Assembly: GCA_041548245.1 (NCBI GenBank)
Contig: JBFESZ010000018.1
Span: 1 to 27,505 of the forward strand
Source of the DNA: Sulfurimonadaceae bacterium
Lineage (GTDB): Bacteria > Campylobacterota > Campylobacteria > Campylobacterales > Sulfurimonadaceae
Direction: 5' to 3'
DNA: 27,505 bases
Shown: positions 4,655 through 27,505 of the stretch, in pieces
Layout of the letters: each line of letters begins with the position of its first letter
Position numbering within the stretch: position 1 is the stretch's first letter
The notes under the pieces: model-generated
Told to the model about the DNA's origin: nothing
The model's input: only the letters and a program-made list of their open reading frames with translations
The model's database searches: none
Program-made: the position numbers and the translations under genes

Positions 4655-4731
4655 GCGTTCGTAGCTCAGCTGGATAGAGCACCGGTTTGCGGTACCGGCG
4701 GTCAGGGGTTCGAATCCCTTCGAGCGCACCA
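4655..4731 (+). tRNA. tRNA-Arg (anticodon GCG)
   Basis: Cloverleaf: acceptor GCGTTCG/CGAGCGC plus ACCA; D arm GCTC/GAGC; anticodon stem CCGGT/ACCGG with loop TT-GCG-GT; T arm AGGGG-TTCGAAT-CCCTT. Confidence 0.97.
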
Positions 4732-21019: not shown

Positions 21020-21218
21020 TAGGCTACCGTACTTAAAGTTAAGTTATATAACGAGGGGTCCATTTAAAGGTAAAGTCCTTGATAGTTTAAAATTTTGAGG
21101 TATTATACACTTTTTATGTAAATAGTGAAAATTTATATTGTAATTAGATGAAAAATTTAATCTCTGGTTTTAGCGCTTTTAGATAAAAATAGAAAAAAAT
21201 TTATAAAGGTTGTTAACT

Positions 21219-21740
21219 ATGCAAACGGCAATTTTAGGTGGTGGATGTTTTTGGTGTATTGAAGCAGTCTACTCCCGTGCTAAAGGTGTGAACTCAGCGA
21301 TCAGTGGATATGCAGGCGGAGAAACTCCTAATCCTACATATAAAGAGATATGTACCGGTATGACAGGGCATGCGGAAGTCGTAAAGGTGATGTTTGATGA
21401 GAATATTATCTCCTATGAGGATATACTCGATATATTTTTTGAGATACATGACCCAACCTCGCTTAATCGTCAGGGCGCGGATGTCGGAACGCAGTATCGT
21501 TCGGTTATTTACTACCTGGATGATGAACAGCGTGATGCAGCTGAAGCCAAAATTATAGAGTTACAAAAAAGGCTTTCATCACCCGTTGTGACAGAACTGA
21601 GTGCTGCCCCTGAGTTCTTTGAAGCAGAAGGGTATCATCAGGACTATTTGACACATAATTCAAATCAGGGATATTGTCAAGCAGTGGTGGCACCAAAGGT
21701 TCAGAAGTTTATGATGAAGTTCAGAGAGTTTATACGTTAA
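21219..21740 (+). CDS. msrA: Peptide-methionine (S)-S-oxide reductase
   Basis: GGGCFWC, GYAGG, TGHAEVV, HDPT, RQGADVGTQYRS, AEGYHQDY; ATG at 21219. Confidence 0.97.
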   Translation: MQTAILGGGCFWCIEAVYSRAKGVNSAISGYAGGETPNPTYKEICTGMTGHAEVVKVMFDENIISYEDILDIFFEIHDPTSLNRQGADVGTQYRSVIYYLDDEQRDAAEAKIIELQKRLSSPVVTELSAAPEFFEAEGYHQDYLTHNSNQGYCQAVVAPKVQKFMMKFREFIR

Positions 21741-21753
21741 GTAATTAGAGATT

Positions 21754-21780
21754 AAAAGGCAAATGATCGTTCATTTGCTT
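21754..21780. terminator. Hairpin downstream of msrA, usable in both directions
   Basis: GCAAATGA-TCGT-TCATTTGC (21759-21778); on the minus strand it is followed by CTTTT. Confidence 0.55.
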
Positions 21781-21885
21781 CATTTCCTGAAATTGCTTTT
21801 ATTTTCATTTTTCTTTCAATACATTTTGTGATTTTTTAAGGACACTTCTCAATTATGCTTTTAGTTTAAATTCAATATGGATTTG

Positions 21886-22046
21886 AGTCAAAGAGAGGAA
21901 GGAGTGTTATTTCAAAGTTTATGGTTTTAAAAGATAAGTTTTACCTACACTGAGGGGAATATAGGTAAAATGGATGTAAAATGTATAAGAGCGATCAAAG
22001 GCTAGGGGAACTTTGATCGAAAATCGTTTGTTTTCTCTTTGACTTC
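21886..22046 (-). ncRNA. Candidate structured sRNA with two UUCCCCU loops (RepG/CJnc190-like architecture)
   Basis: TATAAT at 22059-22054; 11-bp closing stem 22034-22044/21886-21896; two 9-bp hairpins (21939-21970, 21992-22019) with the identical loop motif. Confidence 0.55.
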
Positions 22047-22110
22047 GATGAAAATTATAGATGGTTGATGTGTGATAAATGTGTGAAGTGGAATAAAGAT
22101 ATAATTAAAT

Positions 22111-22722
22111 ATGAATAAAACAAAAGAGATTATTATTGTTGCAGATCCTATGTGCTCTTGGTGCTGGGGATTTGAGCCTGTGATCGAATCTTTGATCAAG
22201 GAATTGCCTGAGGGAGTGAAGCTGTCTCTTCTGATGGGCGGGCTTAGATCCAAGGGAGATCAAGTGTGGGATGATGCGTTTAAATCACATCTGGCCCAAC
22301 ATTGGATAAGTGTTGAAAGAAAGAGTGCTCAGCGTTTCAATATGGAGTTCTTAAAGCGCGAAAGCTTTGACTACGATACAGAACCATCATGTCGGGCTGT
22401 TGTCACAGTAAGAAAAATAGACGAGACTAAGCAGTTCTCTTTTTTTCATGCCATTCAGAAAGCTTTTTATCTGGAGGCTAAAGACATTACCCAAGAACAG
22501 GTTCTTGCAGAGATTTCGGAACAGGAAGGTATTGATAAAGAAGTGTTTTTGAGTCTTTATAGAAGTCAAGCAATGATAGAGAAGACCCAGTCCGATAAAT
22601 ACAAAGCGCGTTCGATGGGCGCTAATGCCTTTCCCTCTTTAGTCTTTATCGATGAGGAGGGGCATCTGTGTGTAATGAAAGGGTACCGATCATACGAAGA
22701 ACTCAGCCGTTTACTCGCCTAA
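22111..22722 (+). CDS. Cytoplasmic DsbA/FrnE-family thioredoxin-fold protein
   Basis: DPMCSWCWGF, YDTEPSCRAV, GANAFPSL; no signal peptide. Confidence 0.88.
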   Translation: MNKTKEIIIVADPMCSWCWGFEPVIESLIKELPEGVKLSLLMGGLRSKGDQVWDDAFKSHLAQHWISVERKSAQRFNMEFLKRESFDYDTEPSCRAVVTVRKIDETKQFSFFHAIQKAFYLEAKDITQEQVLAEISEQEGIDKEVFLSLYRSQAMIEKTQSDKYKARSMGANAFPSLVFIDEEGHLCVMKGYRSYEELSRLLA

Positions 22723-22737
22723 GAAGGATTTGATACT

Positions 22738-23412
22738 TTACTGGATGGTATATCCAACACCGCGGACAGTTTTGATGTAATTATTTGTTGTAATAGTATT
22801 GATTTTTTCTTTCAGGCGCTTGATAGCGACATTGACCGTACGTTTTTGTGTCGAGTTTTCTGACTTCCATACGTTTGTGAGTAGAAAATCGCGATCTAGT
22901 ACGGAACCCTGATTCTCTATAAAGGTACGCAATAGGTTAAACTCAAGTTTTGTAAGTTCCATAGGTCGGTCTTTTATGAAGACAATACGCTGATTGATAT
23001 CCAGTGTTATCTCTTTATACGAAAGCGTCCTTTTGTTGATATGGCTCTTAGTACGTTTCAAGATAGCACTTATACGTAGCAGGAGCTCTTTTATCTCAAA
23101 GGGTTTGGTCATATAGTCATCCCCTCCGCACATAAAACCCTCTTGGATATCCTCTTTTGTATTTTTGGCAGAGAGAAACATCACCGGTGTCTGCATCCCT
23201 TTGTCACGTAATAAAGATATATAGGCACTCCCTTCCACACCGGGTAGGTTTCGATCCATGATAATAAGGTCTACAGGCTCTGTCTCCAGTGTCTTGTTCA
23301 AGAGTTTTGTGTTAACAAGACTCACTGTCTCATAGCCTTCTTTTTGCAGTCTGTGTTCAAGAAGTTCAAGAAGATCAAGGTCATCTTCTACAATTAAAAT
23401 TAATGCTTTCAT
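22738..23412 (-). CDS. OmpR/PhoB-family response regulator resembling Campylobacterota PhosR
   Basis: IVEDD, phospho-acceptor in IIMDRNLPGVEGS, SAK, TKPF; winged helix LTKLEFNLL...RTVNVAIKRLKEKI...IKTVRGVGY. ATG 23412 preferred; 23424 possible. Confidence 0.9.
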   Translation of the reverse strand: MKALILIVEDDLDLLELLEHRLQKEGYETVSLVNTKLLNKTLETEPVDLIIMDRNLPGVEGSAYISLLRDKGMQTPVMFLSAKNTKEDIQEGFMCGGDDYMTKPFEIKELLLRISAILKRTKSHINKRTLSYKEITLDINQRIVFIKDRPMELTKLEFNLLRTFIENQGSVLDRDFLLTNVWKSENSTQKRTVNVAIKRLKEKINTITTNNYIKTVRGVGYTIQ

Positions 23413-23419
23413 AGTCAGT

Positions 23420-23451
23420 ATCATAAGGTCTTAAAATTTCAATTAGATTAC
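23420..23451 (-). promoter_or_regulatory. Putative pho box plus -10 of the regulator gene
   Basis: Minus strand GTAAT (23451) and GAAAT (23440) 11 nt apart, then TATGAT starting 15 nt after the last G. Confidence 0.5.
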
Positions 23452-23528
23452 AACTACCATTTAACATAGCAAGCTATATATTTTTTTTAATGAATAGCAC
23501 TTTATATGAAAATGTAGCCAAAATATTT

Positions 23529-23583
23529 TGTTACCAAAATGTCATCAAGTTGAGATGAAGCAGTAATTAAATCACATTACACT
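23529..23583 (+). promoter_or_regulatory. Tandem pho-box-like repeats plus -10 for the lipoprotein gene
   Basis: GTTAC (23530), GTCAT (23541), GAGAT (23552), GTAAT (23563) with 11-nt period; -10 TACACT at 23578. Confidence 0.7.
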
Positions 23584-23617
23584 TTCGGAACTTTTTTATA
23601 ATTCAAGGGAGATTCAA

Positions 23618-25018
23618 ATGAAAATGAATCAAAAACTTATTTTTGGTGTCCTAACTGCAGGTTCAATCCTGTTCACAGGTTGTGGTGGTTCAGTAGCATC
23701 GGGTGGTGGTACAGTTGTAACGACAAGTTCAAGCTCAAGTAGCGGTAATTGTCCTGCTCAGACAACGTATTTAAGTGCTGAAACAACTATTCTTGGGAAA
23801 GAGGTATGTCAACTTAATGCAAATATTCTTAGTGATCTTATATTGACGAATGACAAGATCTGGTCATTGGGTGATGCCTTGGTAAGAATCGGTGATGATG
23901 CGACAAACAATCCGACATTGACAATACAATCAGGTACGACTCTATATGGTAAAGTCGGTGGAGCACTTGTTGTGCAACGTGGTGCAAAAATTCAGGCTAT
24001 CGGTACGGCATCAGCTCCAATTATTATGACAGGTGAGGCAGACCTTATGCTAGGATCAACTAGCCGTGGACAATGGGCTGGTGTTGTTATCGCTGGTAAA
24101 GCTCCTAACAACAACCCTACAACAGAAGTCGCTTTTGAGTTTGATGCAACGATCTTACATGGTGGAACAGATACTGCAGACAGTTCAGGGGCGATGAAAT
24201 ATGTTGTTGTTAAACATGCAGGACAACCTATTCAAGCAGACCAAGAGTTTAATACAATTACTTTAGGAAGTGTTGGTTCGGGTACGACTATTGATTATGT
24301 TGAAGCCTATAATGGTAAAGATGATGGTATCGAGCTTTTTGGTGGAAATGTTAATATGAGCCACCTTGTTCTTATTGGTAACGATGACGATCAGCTTGAC
24401 ACGGATGAAGGTTATAACGGTTATGTTCAATATGTATATGCTGAGACAACAACTTCAGGTGAAAAAGACCCGTCAGCTTTCGAGTTCTCAAACACGAACA
24501 GTGCTCTTTACGGTGGTGCTGGAACGACTGCGTATTTTGCAGAGCCTAAGGTGGCAAACTTCACTATCGTAGGAGCGCCTTTGGCTAATATGAATGCAAA
24601 CAGCAGTTTCAAATATTACAATGGTATCCGTACAAAAGATGAGACATACGCTAAGTTTGTCAATGGTGAGATTTCTGGTTTTTCAGGTATTGAAGCAGAT
24701 CCGAACTCTGGTATGTGGCGTCATCAAAATGATGGTGTAGGTCAAGTAACAGATGTTACAATGGATGGTATGTTCCTAGATGCTAGTGGTGATTATGAAC
24801 TTGCTTTTGCAACAGCGAAAGATGCGAATGCTACTGAGTTTTATGCAGCAGGATCAGGTAACTCTTATGGCGATGTTGCTGTTCCAACAGCAACACCTGC
24901 AGCAGATGAGCAAGCTATTCTTGGCGGTACATTTATTCAGACAAATGGAACAATCGGTGCTGGTCATGCGACATGGGCAACTGGTTGGGCTGTTAAAGCT
25001 GACGGGACTAACTTCTAA
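23618..25018 (+). CDS. Large surface lipoprotein, probable beta-helix fold, of the type found with phosphate-starvation TonB systems
   Basis: Lipobox FTGC (Cys22), Gly/Ser linker, LTIQSGT, GQWAGVVIAGKAP, DDGIELFGG, DDDQLDTDEG, Trp-containing C-terminus. Confidence 0.8.
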   Translation: MKMNQKLIFGVLTAGSILFTGCGGSVASGGGTVVTTSSSSSSGNCPAQTTYLSAETTILGKEVCQLNANILSDLILTNDKIWSLGDALVRIGDDATNNPTLTIQSGTTLYGKVGGALVVQRGAKIQAIGTASAPIIMTGEADLMLGSTSRGQWAGVVIAGKAPNNNPTTEVAFEFDATILHGGTDTADSSGAMKYVVVKHAGQPIQADQEFNTITLGSVGSGTTIDYVEAYNGKDDGIELFGGNVNMSHLVLIGNDDDQLDTDEGYNGYVQYVYAETTTSGEKDPSAFEFSNTNSALYGGAGTTAYFAEPKVANFTIVGAPLANMNANSSFKYYNGIRTKDETYAKFVNGEISGFSGIEADPNSGMWRHQNDGVGQVTDVTMDGMFLDASGDYELAFATAKDANATEFYAAGSGNSYGDVAVPTATPAADEQAILGGTFIQTNGTIGAGHATWATGWAVKADGTNF

Positions 25019-25031
25019 GACCTTCTCTTTC

Positions 25032-25057
25032 AGGCATCCCTATGAGGATGCCTTTTT
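25032..25057 (+). terminator. Rho-independent terminator
   Basis: AGGCATCC-CTATGA-GGATGCCT followed by TTTT. Confidence 0.85.
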
Positions 25058-25090
25058 CTACTTTTTTCTACTCTTGATTTTTGTACCAAA

Positions 25091-25145
25091 TGTAACCAAA
25101 ATGTTACCTATGAGTAATATTGAAGTAATGACAATTATTTAAACT
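25091..25145 (+). promoter_or_regulatory. Tandem pho-box-like repeats plus -10 for the DUF3450/ExbB operon
   Basis: GTAAC (25092), GTTAC (25103), GTAAT (25114), GTAAT (25125) with 11-nt period; -10 TAAACT at 25140. Confidence 0.75.
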
Positions 25146-25174
25146 TTCAACATCTAAAACTAAACGGGGATCGC

Positions 25175-25933
25175 ATGTCGAAAACAATGCTAAGCATAGC
25201 GGTTGTAACACTTCTTAGTACAACAACACTATTCGCTTCTTCAGAAAATATGGCTGAGTCATTAATGAAACTTCGCGCAGACGTAGAGCAGCTTGATGCT
25301 TCTATTAATGATGAGAAAGATACATACAAAGCAGGGATGAGCTCACTGCTTCGTCAAAAAAATGACCTTGAATCAGTAGTAGCAAGAGAAGACTTGAACA
25401 TCAAGCAACTTGAACGTGAACTTGACAAGGTACGTGCAGAGATCAAAGAAGCAGGTAAAAACACAGAGGGGCTTAAGCCTATCGTGTTTAAAGCCATTGA
25501 TATGTTGGAAGGGAGCATCAAAGCTTCTTTGCCTTTCAAAACAGCAGATAGAATCGCTGATATTGAGAAGATTAAATCACAGCTAGAAAACAACCTTATC
25601 ACAGGACAAAAAGCTTTGGCATTGACATGGAACGCTTATGGTGATGCTATCCGTATGAGTAAAGAGAACGGTCTTTTCAAACAGACAATCAGCATTAATG
25701 GACAAGACCGTCTAGCCGAAGTCGCTCGTATCGGAACGGTGGCAATGTATTTTAAACTTCCTGACAATACTGTAGGTCATGTGACTAAAGATACTAATGG
25801 CTGGTATTATAAAGAGGCTGTGTCTAAAAAAGAGCAAGAGCAGATCTTGGCACTTTTTGATTCATTCAAAAAACAAATTCGTTCTGGGTACTTCACACTG
25901 CCTAATGCGATTGTAATGGCGGAGAGTAAATAA
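25175..25933 (+). CDS. DUF3450-family periplasmic coiled-coil protein (TtpB-like)
   Basis: Signal peptide, coiled coil, SLPFKTADR, RIGTVAMYF, terminal LP motif; first gene of an exbB operon. Confidence 0.8.
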   Translation: MSKTMLSIAVVTLLSTTTLFASSENMAESLMKLRADVEQLDASINDEKDTYKAGMSSLLRQKNDLESVVAREDLNIKQLERELDKVRAEIKEAGKNTEGLKPIVFKAIDMLEGSIKASLPFKTADRIADIEKIKSQLENNLITGQKALALTWNAYGDAIRMSKENGLFKQTISINGQDRLAEVARIGTVAMYFKLPDNTVGHVTKDTNGWYYKEAVSKKEQEQILALFDSFKKQIRSGYFTLPNAIVMAESK

Positions 25934-27246
25934 TGAAGAAAATTTTAACTGTTTTATTGGCATTGAGTCTATCTGTCTTTGCAGCGACTGAGACAGAACT
26001 AGAGCGTGCATACGCTAAAGAGTTTGCTTACTTAAAAGCACAAAAACAGATGTTGCAAAAACGTTTAAATGACATCAAAACGACACAAAACAAAAAACTT
26101 ACAAGTGCGAAGAAAGAACTTGATGTTCTTCAAAACCTTGTTTTGAAGAAAAATGCGATGAATGAAAAGCTTGAAACAGAGCTGTTCCGTGCCCGTCAAA
26201 ATGCACAGGCAATCACAGATGACACATCTTTAATCGAAACAGTGATGATGCAGTCTACTGCAGCTTTGAAACCATTTGGTGTTGATGTGAAAGTTGACGA
26301 ACAAAACTATCAGGGCTCATTAGAGACTGTATTTATGGAAGCCAATGCACTTGTCTCTAAACTTGGTAAGGTAAGTGCTGAAGATGGTAAGTTCTATGTA
26401 CAAGACGGAAGTGAGAAAACTGGACGTGTCATCAAAATCGGTAATATCGCTGCTTATGGTATAGCTGATGATGTAGCAGGCGCTTTGGTACCGGCGGGAG
26501 CAGGTAAACTAAAGATCTGGGATGCAGAAGGTTCAGCGAAAAGTGCACACGCTTTCAATGAAGGTAAAGCAGTAGAAACAATGAACATCTTCTTATACGA
26601 AAATGCTGAAAAAGAGATTGAAGAAGCTGCAGAGAAGACTGTTGTCAGTGTCATCAACTCAGGTGGACTGATCGGATGGATCATTGTGCTACTAGGGGCA
26701 GGAGCAATGATCCTTGTAGCATTGAGAATCATTTTCTTGATGGGTGCGGCTAAAGCGACTGGTAATCTTGCGAAACCGGTTCTTACTAAACTTCTTCAAG
26801 ATGGCAAAGAGAGCGCACTTGAATACATGAAGACACAAAAAGGTTCAACGGCCCGTGTCCTTAAAGCGACTATCCGTAACCTTGACAGAGACCGTGAACA
26901 TATTGAAGATATCGTAGCTGAGTCGATCTTGCATGAGAGTGGAAGACTGGATCGTTTCGGTTCAATGATCCTTGTGGTAGCGGCTGTTGCTCCACTTCTT
27001 GGTCTTCTTGGAACTGTAACAGGTATGATCGCGACATTTGATATTATCACTGAGTTTGGTACGGGTGATCCAAAACTGCTTTCAGGCGGTATTTCTATTG
27101 CTCTTGTGACAACAGAACTTGGTCTTATCGTTGCGATTCCTGTACTTATGCTAGGTAACCTGCTAAGCGGTTGGGCTGAACGTATTAAAGACTCTATGGA
27201 GCACTCAGCATTACACCTTATCAATGAGTATAACAAGCAGGCGTAA
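25933..27246 (+). CDS. Extended MotA/TolQ/ExbB proton-channel protein (TtpC-like)
   Basis: Large periplasmic N-terminal domain, then APLLGLLGTVTGMI, GISIALVTTELGLIVAIP; TAATG coupling to the upstream gene. Confidence 0.9.
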   Translation: MKKILTVLLALSLSVFAATETELERAYAKEFAYLKAQKQMLQKRLNDIKTTQNKKLTSAKKELDVLQNLVLKKNAMNEKLETELFRARQNAQAITDDTSLIETVMMQSTAALKPFGVDVKVDEQNYQGSLETVFMEANALVSKLGKVSAEDGKFYVQDGSEKTGRVIKIGNIAAYGIADDVAGALVPAGAGKLKIWDAEGSAKSAHAFNEGKAVETMNIFLYENAEKEIEEAAEKTVVSVINSGGLIGWIIVLLGAGAMILVALRIIFLMGAAKATGNLAKPVLTKLLQDGKESALEYMKTQKGSTARVLKATIRNLDRDREHIEDIVAESILHESGRLDRFGSMILVVAAVAPLLGLLGTVTGMIATFDIITEFGTGDPKLLSGGISIALVTTELGLIVAIPVLMLGNLLSGWAERIKDSMEHSALHLINEYNKQA

Positions 27247-27505
27247 ATGGAGTTTTTAATCCAGGGGTTTGAGCAGTTTTTTGCCTATATGAATAGTGGT
27301 GGCTATGTTATGTGGCCGCTTGCTATCTGTGTGTTGGTATTATGGTATGCCTTAGGCTATCGTTATTACACGCTCAATCGCGGTTCAAAAGCTACGGTTA
27401 GAAATCTTGTCAGAAAATTCCAAGAGGGTATCCGAAGTGAGCCTAAAGGAATGATAGACGGGGCTATTGTAGAAGCGATAGCTATTGTTAAAAAAGAGGG
27501 TCATA
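27247..27505 (+). CDS. Second MotA/TolQ/ExbB-family protein, truncated by the window end
   Basis: Manual translation MEFLIQGFEQFFAYMNSGGYVMWPLAICVLVLWYALGYR...; GG.VMWPL is the ExbB TM1 signature. Confidence 0.8.
   Translation, partial: MEFLIQGFEQFFAYMNSGGYVMWPLAICVLVLWYALGYRYYTLNRGSKATVRNLVRKFQEGIRSEPKGMIDGAIVEAIAIVKKEGH

Follow-up and report, generated by a model that had tools for sequence, protein, structure and literature searches.

A conserved, previously uncatalogued candidate small RNA gene in one genus of sulfur-oxidising bacteria

The locus and the predicted RNA

The window analysed here is a stretch of 27,505 nucleotides at the start of contig JBFESZ010000018.1 from a Sulfurimonadaceae bacterium (assembly GCA_041548245.1). 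We refer to the window's genome as G000; other G numbers denote compared genomes, and g2, g4 and g9 denote other genera. The feature under study, hereafter family A, lies on the minus strand between msrA, which converges on it, and a gene for a DsbA/thioredoxin-fold protein, which diverges from it; a gene for a PhoB-like response regulator lies beyond the latter (Table 1). At 22738-27504, this PhoB-like gene is divergent from genes for a lipoprotein (466 aa, no Pfam match), a DUF3450 protein and ExbB-like proteins. A second PhoB-like gene is found in the pst cluster on contig C13 of G000.

Table 1. Features at the family A locus (positions are those of the window)
Feature	Position	Strand	Support and remarks
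msrA, convergent neighbour	21210..21740	+	PF01625; neighbour in 3/15 genomes
Hairpin with T runs	21754..21778	.	14 nt beyond msrA stop; not conserved in homologs
Core sRNA (family A), ~163 nt	21884..22046	-	Covariance-model match 4.8e-23; ends inferred from conservation
Closing stem P1, 3' arm	21886..21896	-	11 bp with 22044-22034
Single-stranded C/U tract CUCCUUCCU before closing stem	21896..21904	-	Read directly in window
Hairpin P3, C-rich loop (motif 21953-21959)	21939..21970	-	Stem sequence variable; not universal
Hairpin P2, 9 bp	21992..22019	-	91% of cells paired; two-sided change in 6/9 pairs
P2 loop UUCCCCUAGC	22001-22010	-	Most conserved loop
Closing stem P1, 5' arm	22034..22044	-	97% of cells paired; two-sided change in 4/9 counted pairs
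Predicted 5' start of family A RNA	22046-22049	-	Conservation; 3' end predicted as the closing stem
-10 hexamer TATAAT	22054..22059	-	TA(T/C)A(A/C)T in 15/15 homologs; 6-10 nt before conserved GAAG start
Direct-repeat box, two ACACAT half-sites, 11-bp period, replacing the -35 element	22068..22087	-	15/15 homologs
DsbA/thioredoxin-fold gene, divergent neighbour	22111..22722	+	PF13743, PF01323; neighbour in 11/15 genomes
PhoB-like response regulator	22738..23424	-	Pfam and neighbour comparison; nearby in 4/15 genomes

Each sequence feature in the original prediction was found at its given coordinates. The perfect TATAAT is present, and the start expected near 22046 agrees with the homologs, which keep a GAAG start at a fixed range behind the -10 element. 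The 5' bases pair perfectly with a downstream segment to form the 11-bp closing stem (P1), which encloses two 9-bp hairpins (P2, 22019-21992; P3, 21970-21939) sharing the motif UUCCCCU at 22010-22004 and 21959-21953, and the third C/U tract is found directly before the 3' arm. Counting G-U pairs, the 9-bp core of P3 grows to 13 bp, so that the first two loop U's of P3 can pair. The C/U tract is the complement of the common AAGGAG site; a similar tract occurs in most homologs and is missing from several. The P2 loop is likely the main seed of the RNA.

The 163-nt core (22046-21884) folded with a z-score of -7.6 against 200 dinucleotide shuffles, and the 293-nt version of the RNA with one of -3.06. 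In the window's genome, a perfect 11-bp inverted repeat with arms 100-200 nt apart was found in 11 of 404 intergenic regions of at least 200 nt. Since such a repeat alone occurs elsewhere, the case rests on comparison: conservation together with covariation, rather than the closing stem alone, provides what we regard as strong evidence for an RNA.

The hairpin and U tract at 21778-21754 had been proposed to end a transcript of about 290 nt. The hairpin is indeed there, but it is particular to the window's genome and is probably the terminator of the convergent pair, outside the conserved RNA. The proposed length did not hold up either, as homologs span 122-165 nt (n = 15) and similarity stops at the closing stem; judged by these alignments, the 290-nt form is not the conserved unit. 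In the window's genome, read-through to the hairpin followed by trimming is possible. Among the 15 homologs, a terminator-like hairpin was found in one within the 120 nt scanned downstream, a span ending just short of the window's U tract.

The gene on the 3' side is a co-oriented M23 peptidase gene in 8/15 genomes, a secreted-protein gene in 4/15 and the convergent msrA in 3/15 (assignments with a Pfam check on the G003 copy). Directly past the stem, a few bases before the next start codon, a separate extended -10 element is present in 7/15, which points to a separate leaderless message. The varying 3' neighbours and this promoter of their own argue that the family A RNA is not a leader. Where the M23 peptidase gene follows, its extended -10 abuts the last base of the RNA, and its message appears to lack a leader (L035, L037, L040-L044). 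A second direct repeat, of TCACA type, is present in the window at ~21820-21835 (-) and is clearer in relatives (L030, L032, L033, L036); there it precedes the secreted-protein gene, which is absent at that place in the window.

Conservation, covariation and strand

A DNA search detected family A in 8 of the 16 other genus genomes. We then used a covariance model built from nine sequences of orthologous regions, an approach that the original prediction had itself suggested. With it, one copy each was detected in 15 of 17 genus genomes, including the window's own, where this was the single copy at E-values up to 1. A diverged copy missed by the model occupies the same gene position in a sixteenth genome (G003), and no family A match was found in G013, which is 88% complete. 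No match was found in 134 genomes from other genera of the taxonomic family under stricter filters, with which weak matches are lost. Outside that family, blastn gave short matches to the RNA in 5 of 24 genomes. A promoter-plus-start pattern, run against 185,579 species genomes, gave 10 matches, all labelled Sulfurimonadaceae, Sulfurimonas, Arcobacter or Campylobacterales. At gathering scores no Rfam model matched family A, the window's sole match being a tRNA elsewhere; a tRNA gene lies at 4655-4728 (+). An Rfam CRISPR-repeat match (E 4.1) was dismissed as chance.

In the 15-row alignment, 91.5% of cells were paired and two-sided change was found at 12 of 20 pairs. None of 500 shuffles reached the observed covariation, and controls with slid pairing gave 33-51%. 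Because 9 of the 15 rows had trained the model to which the alignment was fitted, because the aligned sequences are kin, and because a single sequence accounts for several of the two-sided changes, the covariation is strong yet not independent. The closing stem measures 10-16 bp in all 15 homologs. The P2 loop CCCU(U)A is likewise kept in 15/15 while its stem varies, and it is accessible in the predicted fold. A contiguous P3 stem exceeded shuffles at p<0.05 in 7/15, a count in which interrupted stems are missed, and P3 is apparently absent in G016 and G001.

Three observations indicated the strand: paired columns hold 15 G-U against 3 A-C combinations when read on the minus strand, the fold z-score was better on that strand in 9/9 sequences, and the promoter lies on it in 15/15. 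No conserved small open reading frame was found on either strand of the 15 homologs. The earlier picture of a minus-strand small RNA whose C-rich loops lie inside a 5'-3' closing stem is borne out by the distribution, the covariation of that stem and the strand tests. It is very probable that family A is a real, independent RNA and, as read from the compared genomes, it represents a conserved, previously uncatalogued sRNA gene of one genus of sulfur oxidisers.

The promoter box, a sibling RNA family and the candidate regulator

The promoter box and a sibling RNA family are new relative to the original prediction. The ACACAT direct repeat ends exactly 8 nt upstream of the -10 element in 15/15 family A homologs. 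Activators of the OmpR/PhoB family typically bind repeats that have an 11-bp period and overlap the -35 position. Across the family, the box-plus-promoter pattern had 37 matches in 17 of 101 genomes, and its reversed control had none. In the window's genome, a box matrix trained on other genomes only returned 310 boxes; a -10 element at gap 8 followed an intergenic box in 12 cases, compared with about three at other gaps. We inspected 18 box loci, excluding already known RNA copies.

The second-strongest box-plus-promoter site in the window's genome drives an unannotated candidate RNA, family B (G000 contig C13, ~13842-13730, -; L054:1530-1643). Its layout comprises two hairpins, each with a C-rich loop, and between them a single-stranded AUUCUCCC. 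Matches were found in 10 of 17 genus genomes, and a further copy in G003 raises this to 11/17, with one to three copies per genome. Box and -10 element are present at 18 of 22 family B loci inspected, and the second hairpin shows two-sided change at 6 of 10 pairs in 11 sequences picked from inspected loci. Of ten metagenome pattern matches to family B, three are further members and seven are chance. Contig C86 of G000 (L064) carries a family B copy that is letter-identical to the G004 copy (L056) over the stretch compared; C86 also repeats gyrB and queF of C13, and ccoO is likewise doubled on C92. Judged from these repeats, C86 is probably a contaminating contig.

Two further RNA candidates were noted. 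In genus g9, a box drives a structured RNA (L107, G024:C134, from ~1538) that combines a long-range stem with a P2-like hairpin and a CACUCCUU tract and may be a remote member of family A; a second site with the same promoter lies at G024:C156. A rod-shaped candidate with its own TATAAT lies upstream of purD in the window's genome (G000 C27 ~21433-21590, +; L257 ~1337-1494). The 6S model RF00013 had no match in that genome, and the rod-shaped candidate is probably a 6S RNA that this model missed.

In genus g2, seven of ten box matches are within or next to copper-resistance genes; of the other three, two fall inside a coding gene and one is unclear. The linked genes encode CopA-type ATPases, CopB with a DUF302 protein, YtkA with TolC, and a KCG-repeat precursor recognised by motif only. 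In G017, one box stands before a CopZ-domain gene and the genes for an OmpR-family regulator and its kinase; another, divergent box stands before a YtkA gene and a multicopper oxidase gene. A box also precedes an HvfA/HvfX pair in the window's genome, and the TolC-CusB-CusA-type operon there has an upstream box with mismatches, below the cut-off of the matrix scan. At C32:3234-4108 (L053) of G000, an HvfA-type KCG-repeat metallophore precursor and an HvfX-type partner stand behind a box promoter. Boxes are found before non-copper genes too, including thioredoxin-fold and hydrolase genes, and before msrP in G000, G002 and G010. The ACACAT box defines a copper regulon for part of the family.

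A candidate reader of the box adjoins the TolC-CusB-CusA-type operon of the window's genome, where an OmpR-family regulator (C106:4727-5374) and a kinase are encoded. Its relatives were found at seven loci in five genomes, four beside a CusA-like or P-type ATPase gene and three without a copper gene. The box before regulator and kinase in G017 is expected for self-activation. Homolog, structure-sequence and family-model searches gave no name, CrdR included, for the regulator in the copper cluster. We consider it fairly likely that a copper-type regulator reads the box. For the family A promoter, the regulator is most likely a CrdRS/CusRS-like pair of the copper-efflux clusters, a candidate suggested by gene position and shared sites. 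As this promoter shares its box with copper-resistance genes, family A may be the RNA arm of a copper stress response. The neighbouring PhoB-like regulator was rejected as activator because it is nearby in 4/15 genomes only and because the pstS-phoU region has no box placed on a promoter. A plasmid search with this neighbouring regulator gave no name for it.

For the Helicobacter pylori regulator CrdR, the part of 10.64898/2026.06.29.735229 available gives the core AACACC-ATTT-CCACAA, which on our own reading could be taken as ACAC and ACAA 11 bp apart. CrdRS is described, in the accessible portions of the same source and PMC9449129, as answering nitrosative stress too. The available portions of PMC9927306 and PMC10092412 held nothing on binding sites or sRNAs.

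Targets, mechanism and relation to known systems

Target counts rest on gene starts from a simple heuristic, some of them wrong. By this count, 74 of the 2082 genes called in the window's genome have GGGG in their ribosome-binding region and 839 have AGGA; given this rarity, C4 loops would be selective. A ranking by pairing plus accessibility in the same genome yielded no standout target. The three G-rich sites of the window named as targets in the original prediction are all present, but took ranks 154, 157 and 686 among the 1311 genes scored. The pattern YTAGGGGR-ATG, in which a perfect complement of the loop precedes the start codon, was not enriched over its reversed control.

Several individual messages deserve mention. 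The ccoO gene carries AGGGAGA in 18/18 genus sequences and in 0/12 outside, where four of the 12 keep AGGGAG; the spacer is conserved throughout in the genus. This site suits family B better than the family A RNA. One Opr-type porin family keeps (A/T)GGAGAA in 10/10 relatives, and a second has AGGAGA in most copies; the porin site, AGGAGAA, is shared with genus g2, where the RNA was not found. A GGGG site before petB is kept in 6 of 14 genus starts and varies. Both ccoP, whose site varies, and cheW, whose site is not conserved in 5/5 relatives, were rejected as targets. As likely target classes, messages for envelope and respiratory proteins are faintly suggested, among them those of Opr-type porins, ccoO and petB. 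An Opr-like porin gene with a six-G ribosome-binding site was seen at G000 C47:1153-2421 (L111); its product resembles proteins of genera g2 and g4 (58-63%) more than those of its own genus (40-52%).

We propose the following model. Under copper stress, or under related redox stress in the periplasm, a phosphorylated OmpR-family regulator would occupy the ACACAT direct repeat (about -40 to -20) and switch on the promoter, which has a -10 element only. The transcript of ~160 nt would fold into a multi-branch shape in which the 5'-3' stem ties the ends and may shield them from exonucleases, with no conserved terminator. Two C-rich loops and the C/U tract, left exposed, could by analogy pair with G-rich ribosome-binding sites and repress translation. 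Pairing would proceed without Hfq, for which no match was found in the window's genome (96% complete), and the RNA would work alongside the multicopy family B under the same box. RNase III is encoded (rnc) in the window's genome, and trimming of the stem by this enzyme is possible.

That family A acts by pairing to mRNA is probable. The comparison of genomes establishes the conservation, fold and strand of the RNA, the layout of its promoter and the genes that its box accompanies; transcription, inducer, pairing and targets are deduced from DNA letters. For the full reading, in which a CrdRS/CusRS-like copper sensor turns on an sRNA that acts against Shine-Dalgarno sites without Hfq, we put the probability at roughly 55%. 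More tentatively, and at less than even odds, the strongest promoters of the copper regulon may be given to C-rich sRNAs that shut down translation of porins and respiratory subunits in copper excess.

The sensor rather than the RNA is at issue if the box responds more broadly to oxidative signals in the periplasm or to envelope signals (reactive chlorine, nitrosative or disulfide stress) and not to copper itself, the RNA still acting against Shine-Dalgarno sequences. Boxed msrP in three genomes, the boxed thioredoxin-fold and hydrolase genes, msrA and the DsbA-fold gene as neighbours of family A, and the nitrosative response ascribed to CrdRS in the partial accounts above would all fit; in g2, however, the box is mostly found at dedicated copper genes, and the regulator pair belongs to copper clusters, which leaves the wider signal a minority possibility. 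A different function would follow if the C-rich loops bind a protein or another RNA, as sponge or scaffold, instead of ribosome-binding sites. Pairing sRNAs do not usually have such a closed shape with protected ends, no target found explains how well the P2 stem and loop sequence are conserved, and no conserved target emerged. Repeated C-runs on unrelated stems, with the same motif in family B, are nevertheless the pattern of mRNA-pairing sRNAs, and short seeds to many weak targets would likewise give no clear signal; we hold a sponge or scaffold to be improbable.

The remaining alternatives concern what kind of element this is. A true CJnc190 or RepG homolog, matured by RNase III from a ~290-nt precursor, could account for the C/U-rich loops, the flank-joining duplex and the encoded RNase III, and the 10-16 bp stem is near the 11-20 bp range given in the accessible part of PMC8687705. 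Against it stand the lack of matches in 134 family genomes of other genera (stricter filters), a position not beside the hsrA-like gene, a single conserved promoter without a conserved antisense promoter, several loops and no conserved extension, and we find homology very unlikely. Terminal inverted repeats of 10-16 bp and the lack of an Rfam 6S match in the window's genome might also suggest a miniature inverted-repeat element acting at the DNA level, or a cis-acting leader, terminator or 6S RNA. A single copy at a conserved gene position, rather than many dispersed ones, variable or convergent 3' neighbours and wobble pairs speak against such elements; for 6S RNA, so do the multi-branch fold, the absent RF00013 match and the separate rod-shaped candidate with its own -10 upstream of purD, a position in line with the available part of PMC3847290. 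We give this group scant credence. Slimmer still is the chance of a plus-strand RNA sponging CsrA in the manner of CsrB/RsmZ: GGA motifs do lie in loops of the reverse strand and CsrA is encoded, but the G-U to A-C ratio, the z-scores in all nine sequences and the promoter, conserved on the minus strand only, favour the opposite strand.

Non-coding RNAs of the phylum are reported to be mostly species-specific (PMC3847290, in the part available), and CJnc190 is stated to have no known regulators (PMC8687705, likewise). Here, two uncatalogued families are kept across a genus; they share a legible regulator box, for which both a sensor pair and an inducing signal can be put forward as candidates. 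The literature searched, at abstract level, held no description of the family A RNA or of an sRNA controlled by a copper sensor, although supplementary sRNA tables could hold one. If the reading as a copper-switched, C-rich sRNA is true, the genus would combine an end-closed, terminator-less RNA with one to three LhrC-like siblings per genome, copper- or iron-dependent subunits such as the cbb3 oxidase subunit CcoO would be repressed, and a bacterial copper sensor would have a dedicated sRNA arm convergent with Listeria LhrC. If copper induction holds, copper would join the metals with a dedicated sRNA response, in an Hfq-free, testable model.

UCCC seed motifs are known from staphylococcal RsaE and RNAIII and from the pneumococcal csRNAs, the last of which are siblings under one response regulator. 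These belong to low-GC Gram-positive families, and family A has no Rfam match. The original prediction had considered an RNA analogous or homologous to RepG and CJnc190; the analogy stands, but homology found no support, as position, layout and range differ. Like family A, H. pylori RepG is a stand-alone gene with a C/U-rich loop able to pair with G-runs. As far as the available text of PMC8295292 goes, RepG lies between hp1043 (hsrA) and hp1044, carries its seed in the terminator loop and is reported from gastric Helicobacter alone. The seeds of family A lie in internal hairpins within a closing stem, with no terminator loop, and the gene lies between the DsbA-fold gene and msrA or the M23 gene, the hsrA-like gene (recognised by eye) being on contig C1. 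Campylobacter jejuni CJnc190 also has C/U-rich loops, comparable to the CCCU(U)A loop seen in every family A homolog. The accessible part of PMC8687705 describes an RNA transcribed from two promoters, with an antisense partner and a long duplex that RNase III cuts, and with no known regulator, whereas family A has one boxed promoter, two to three C-rich sites and a short stem that begins at the predicted first base. An opposite-strand -10-like hexamer within 40 nt of the 3' end, as an antisense partner would need, was found in 1/15 homologs. Going by these descriptions, the position and layout of RepG and the antisense partner of CJnc190 are not shared, and family A was therefore not filed under either. 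The CrdRS regulon of H. pylori resembles the present one in its OmpR-family copper and stress sensor and in AC-rich sites of compatible 11-bp spacing upstream of an efflux system; the available portions of 10.64898/2026.06.29.735229 and PMC9449129 mention no sRNA in it, and for the family A box the regulator is a candidate only.

A close likeness is to LhrC1-5 of Listeria monocytogenes, which carry two loop and one single-stranded UCCC motif under two-component control (PMC4132741, in the part available, as for all LhrC features below). LhrC and family A alike carry the C-rich motif redundantly: two copies sit in loops and a third is single-stranded. LhrC depends strictly on its two-component system, with siblings under one regulator; family A has a conserved box and a predicted regulator. 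LhrC pairs without Hfq, and the family A genome has no Hfq match. Unlike family A, LhrC ends in a terminator hairpin, has no 5'-3' stem, belongs to another phylum and responds to envelope and heme stress. Family B is nearer the LhrC layout than family A is, a likeness of layout by description. On this reading, family A would be a new family, and a variant, among two-component-controlled, C-rich sRNAs.
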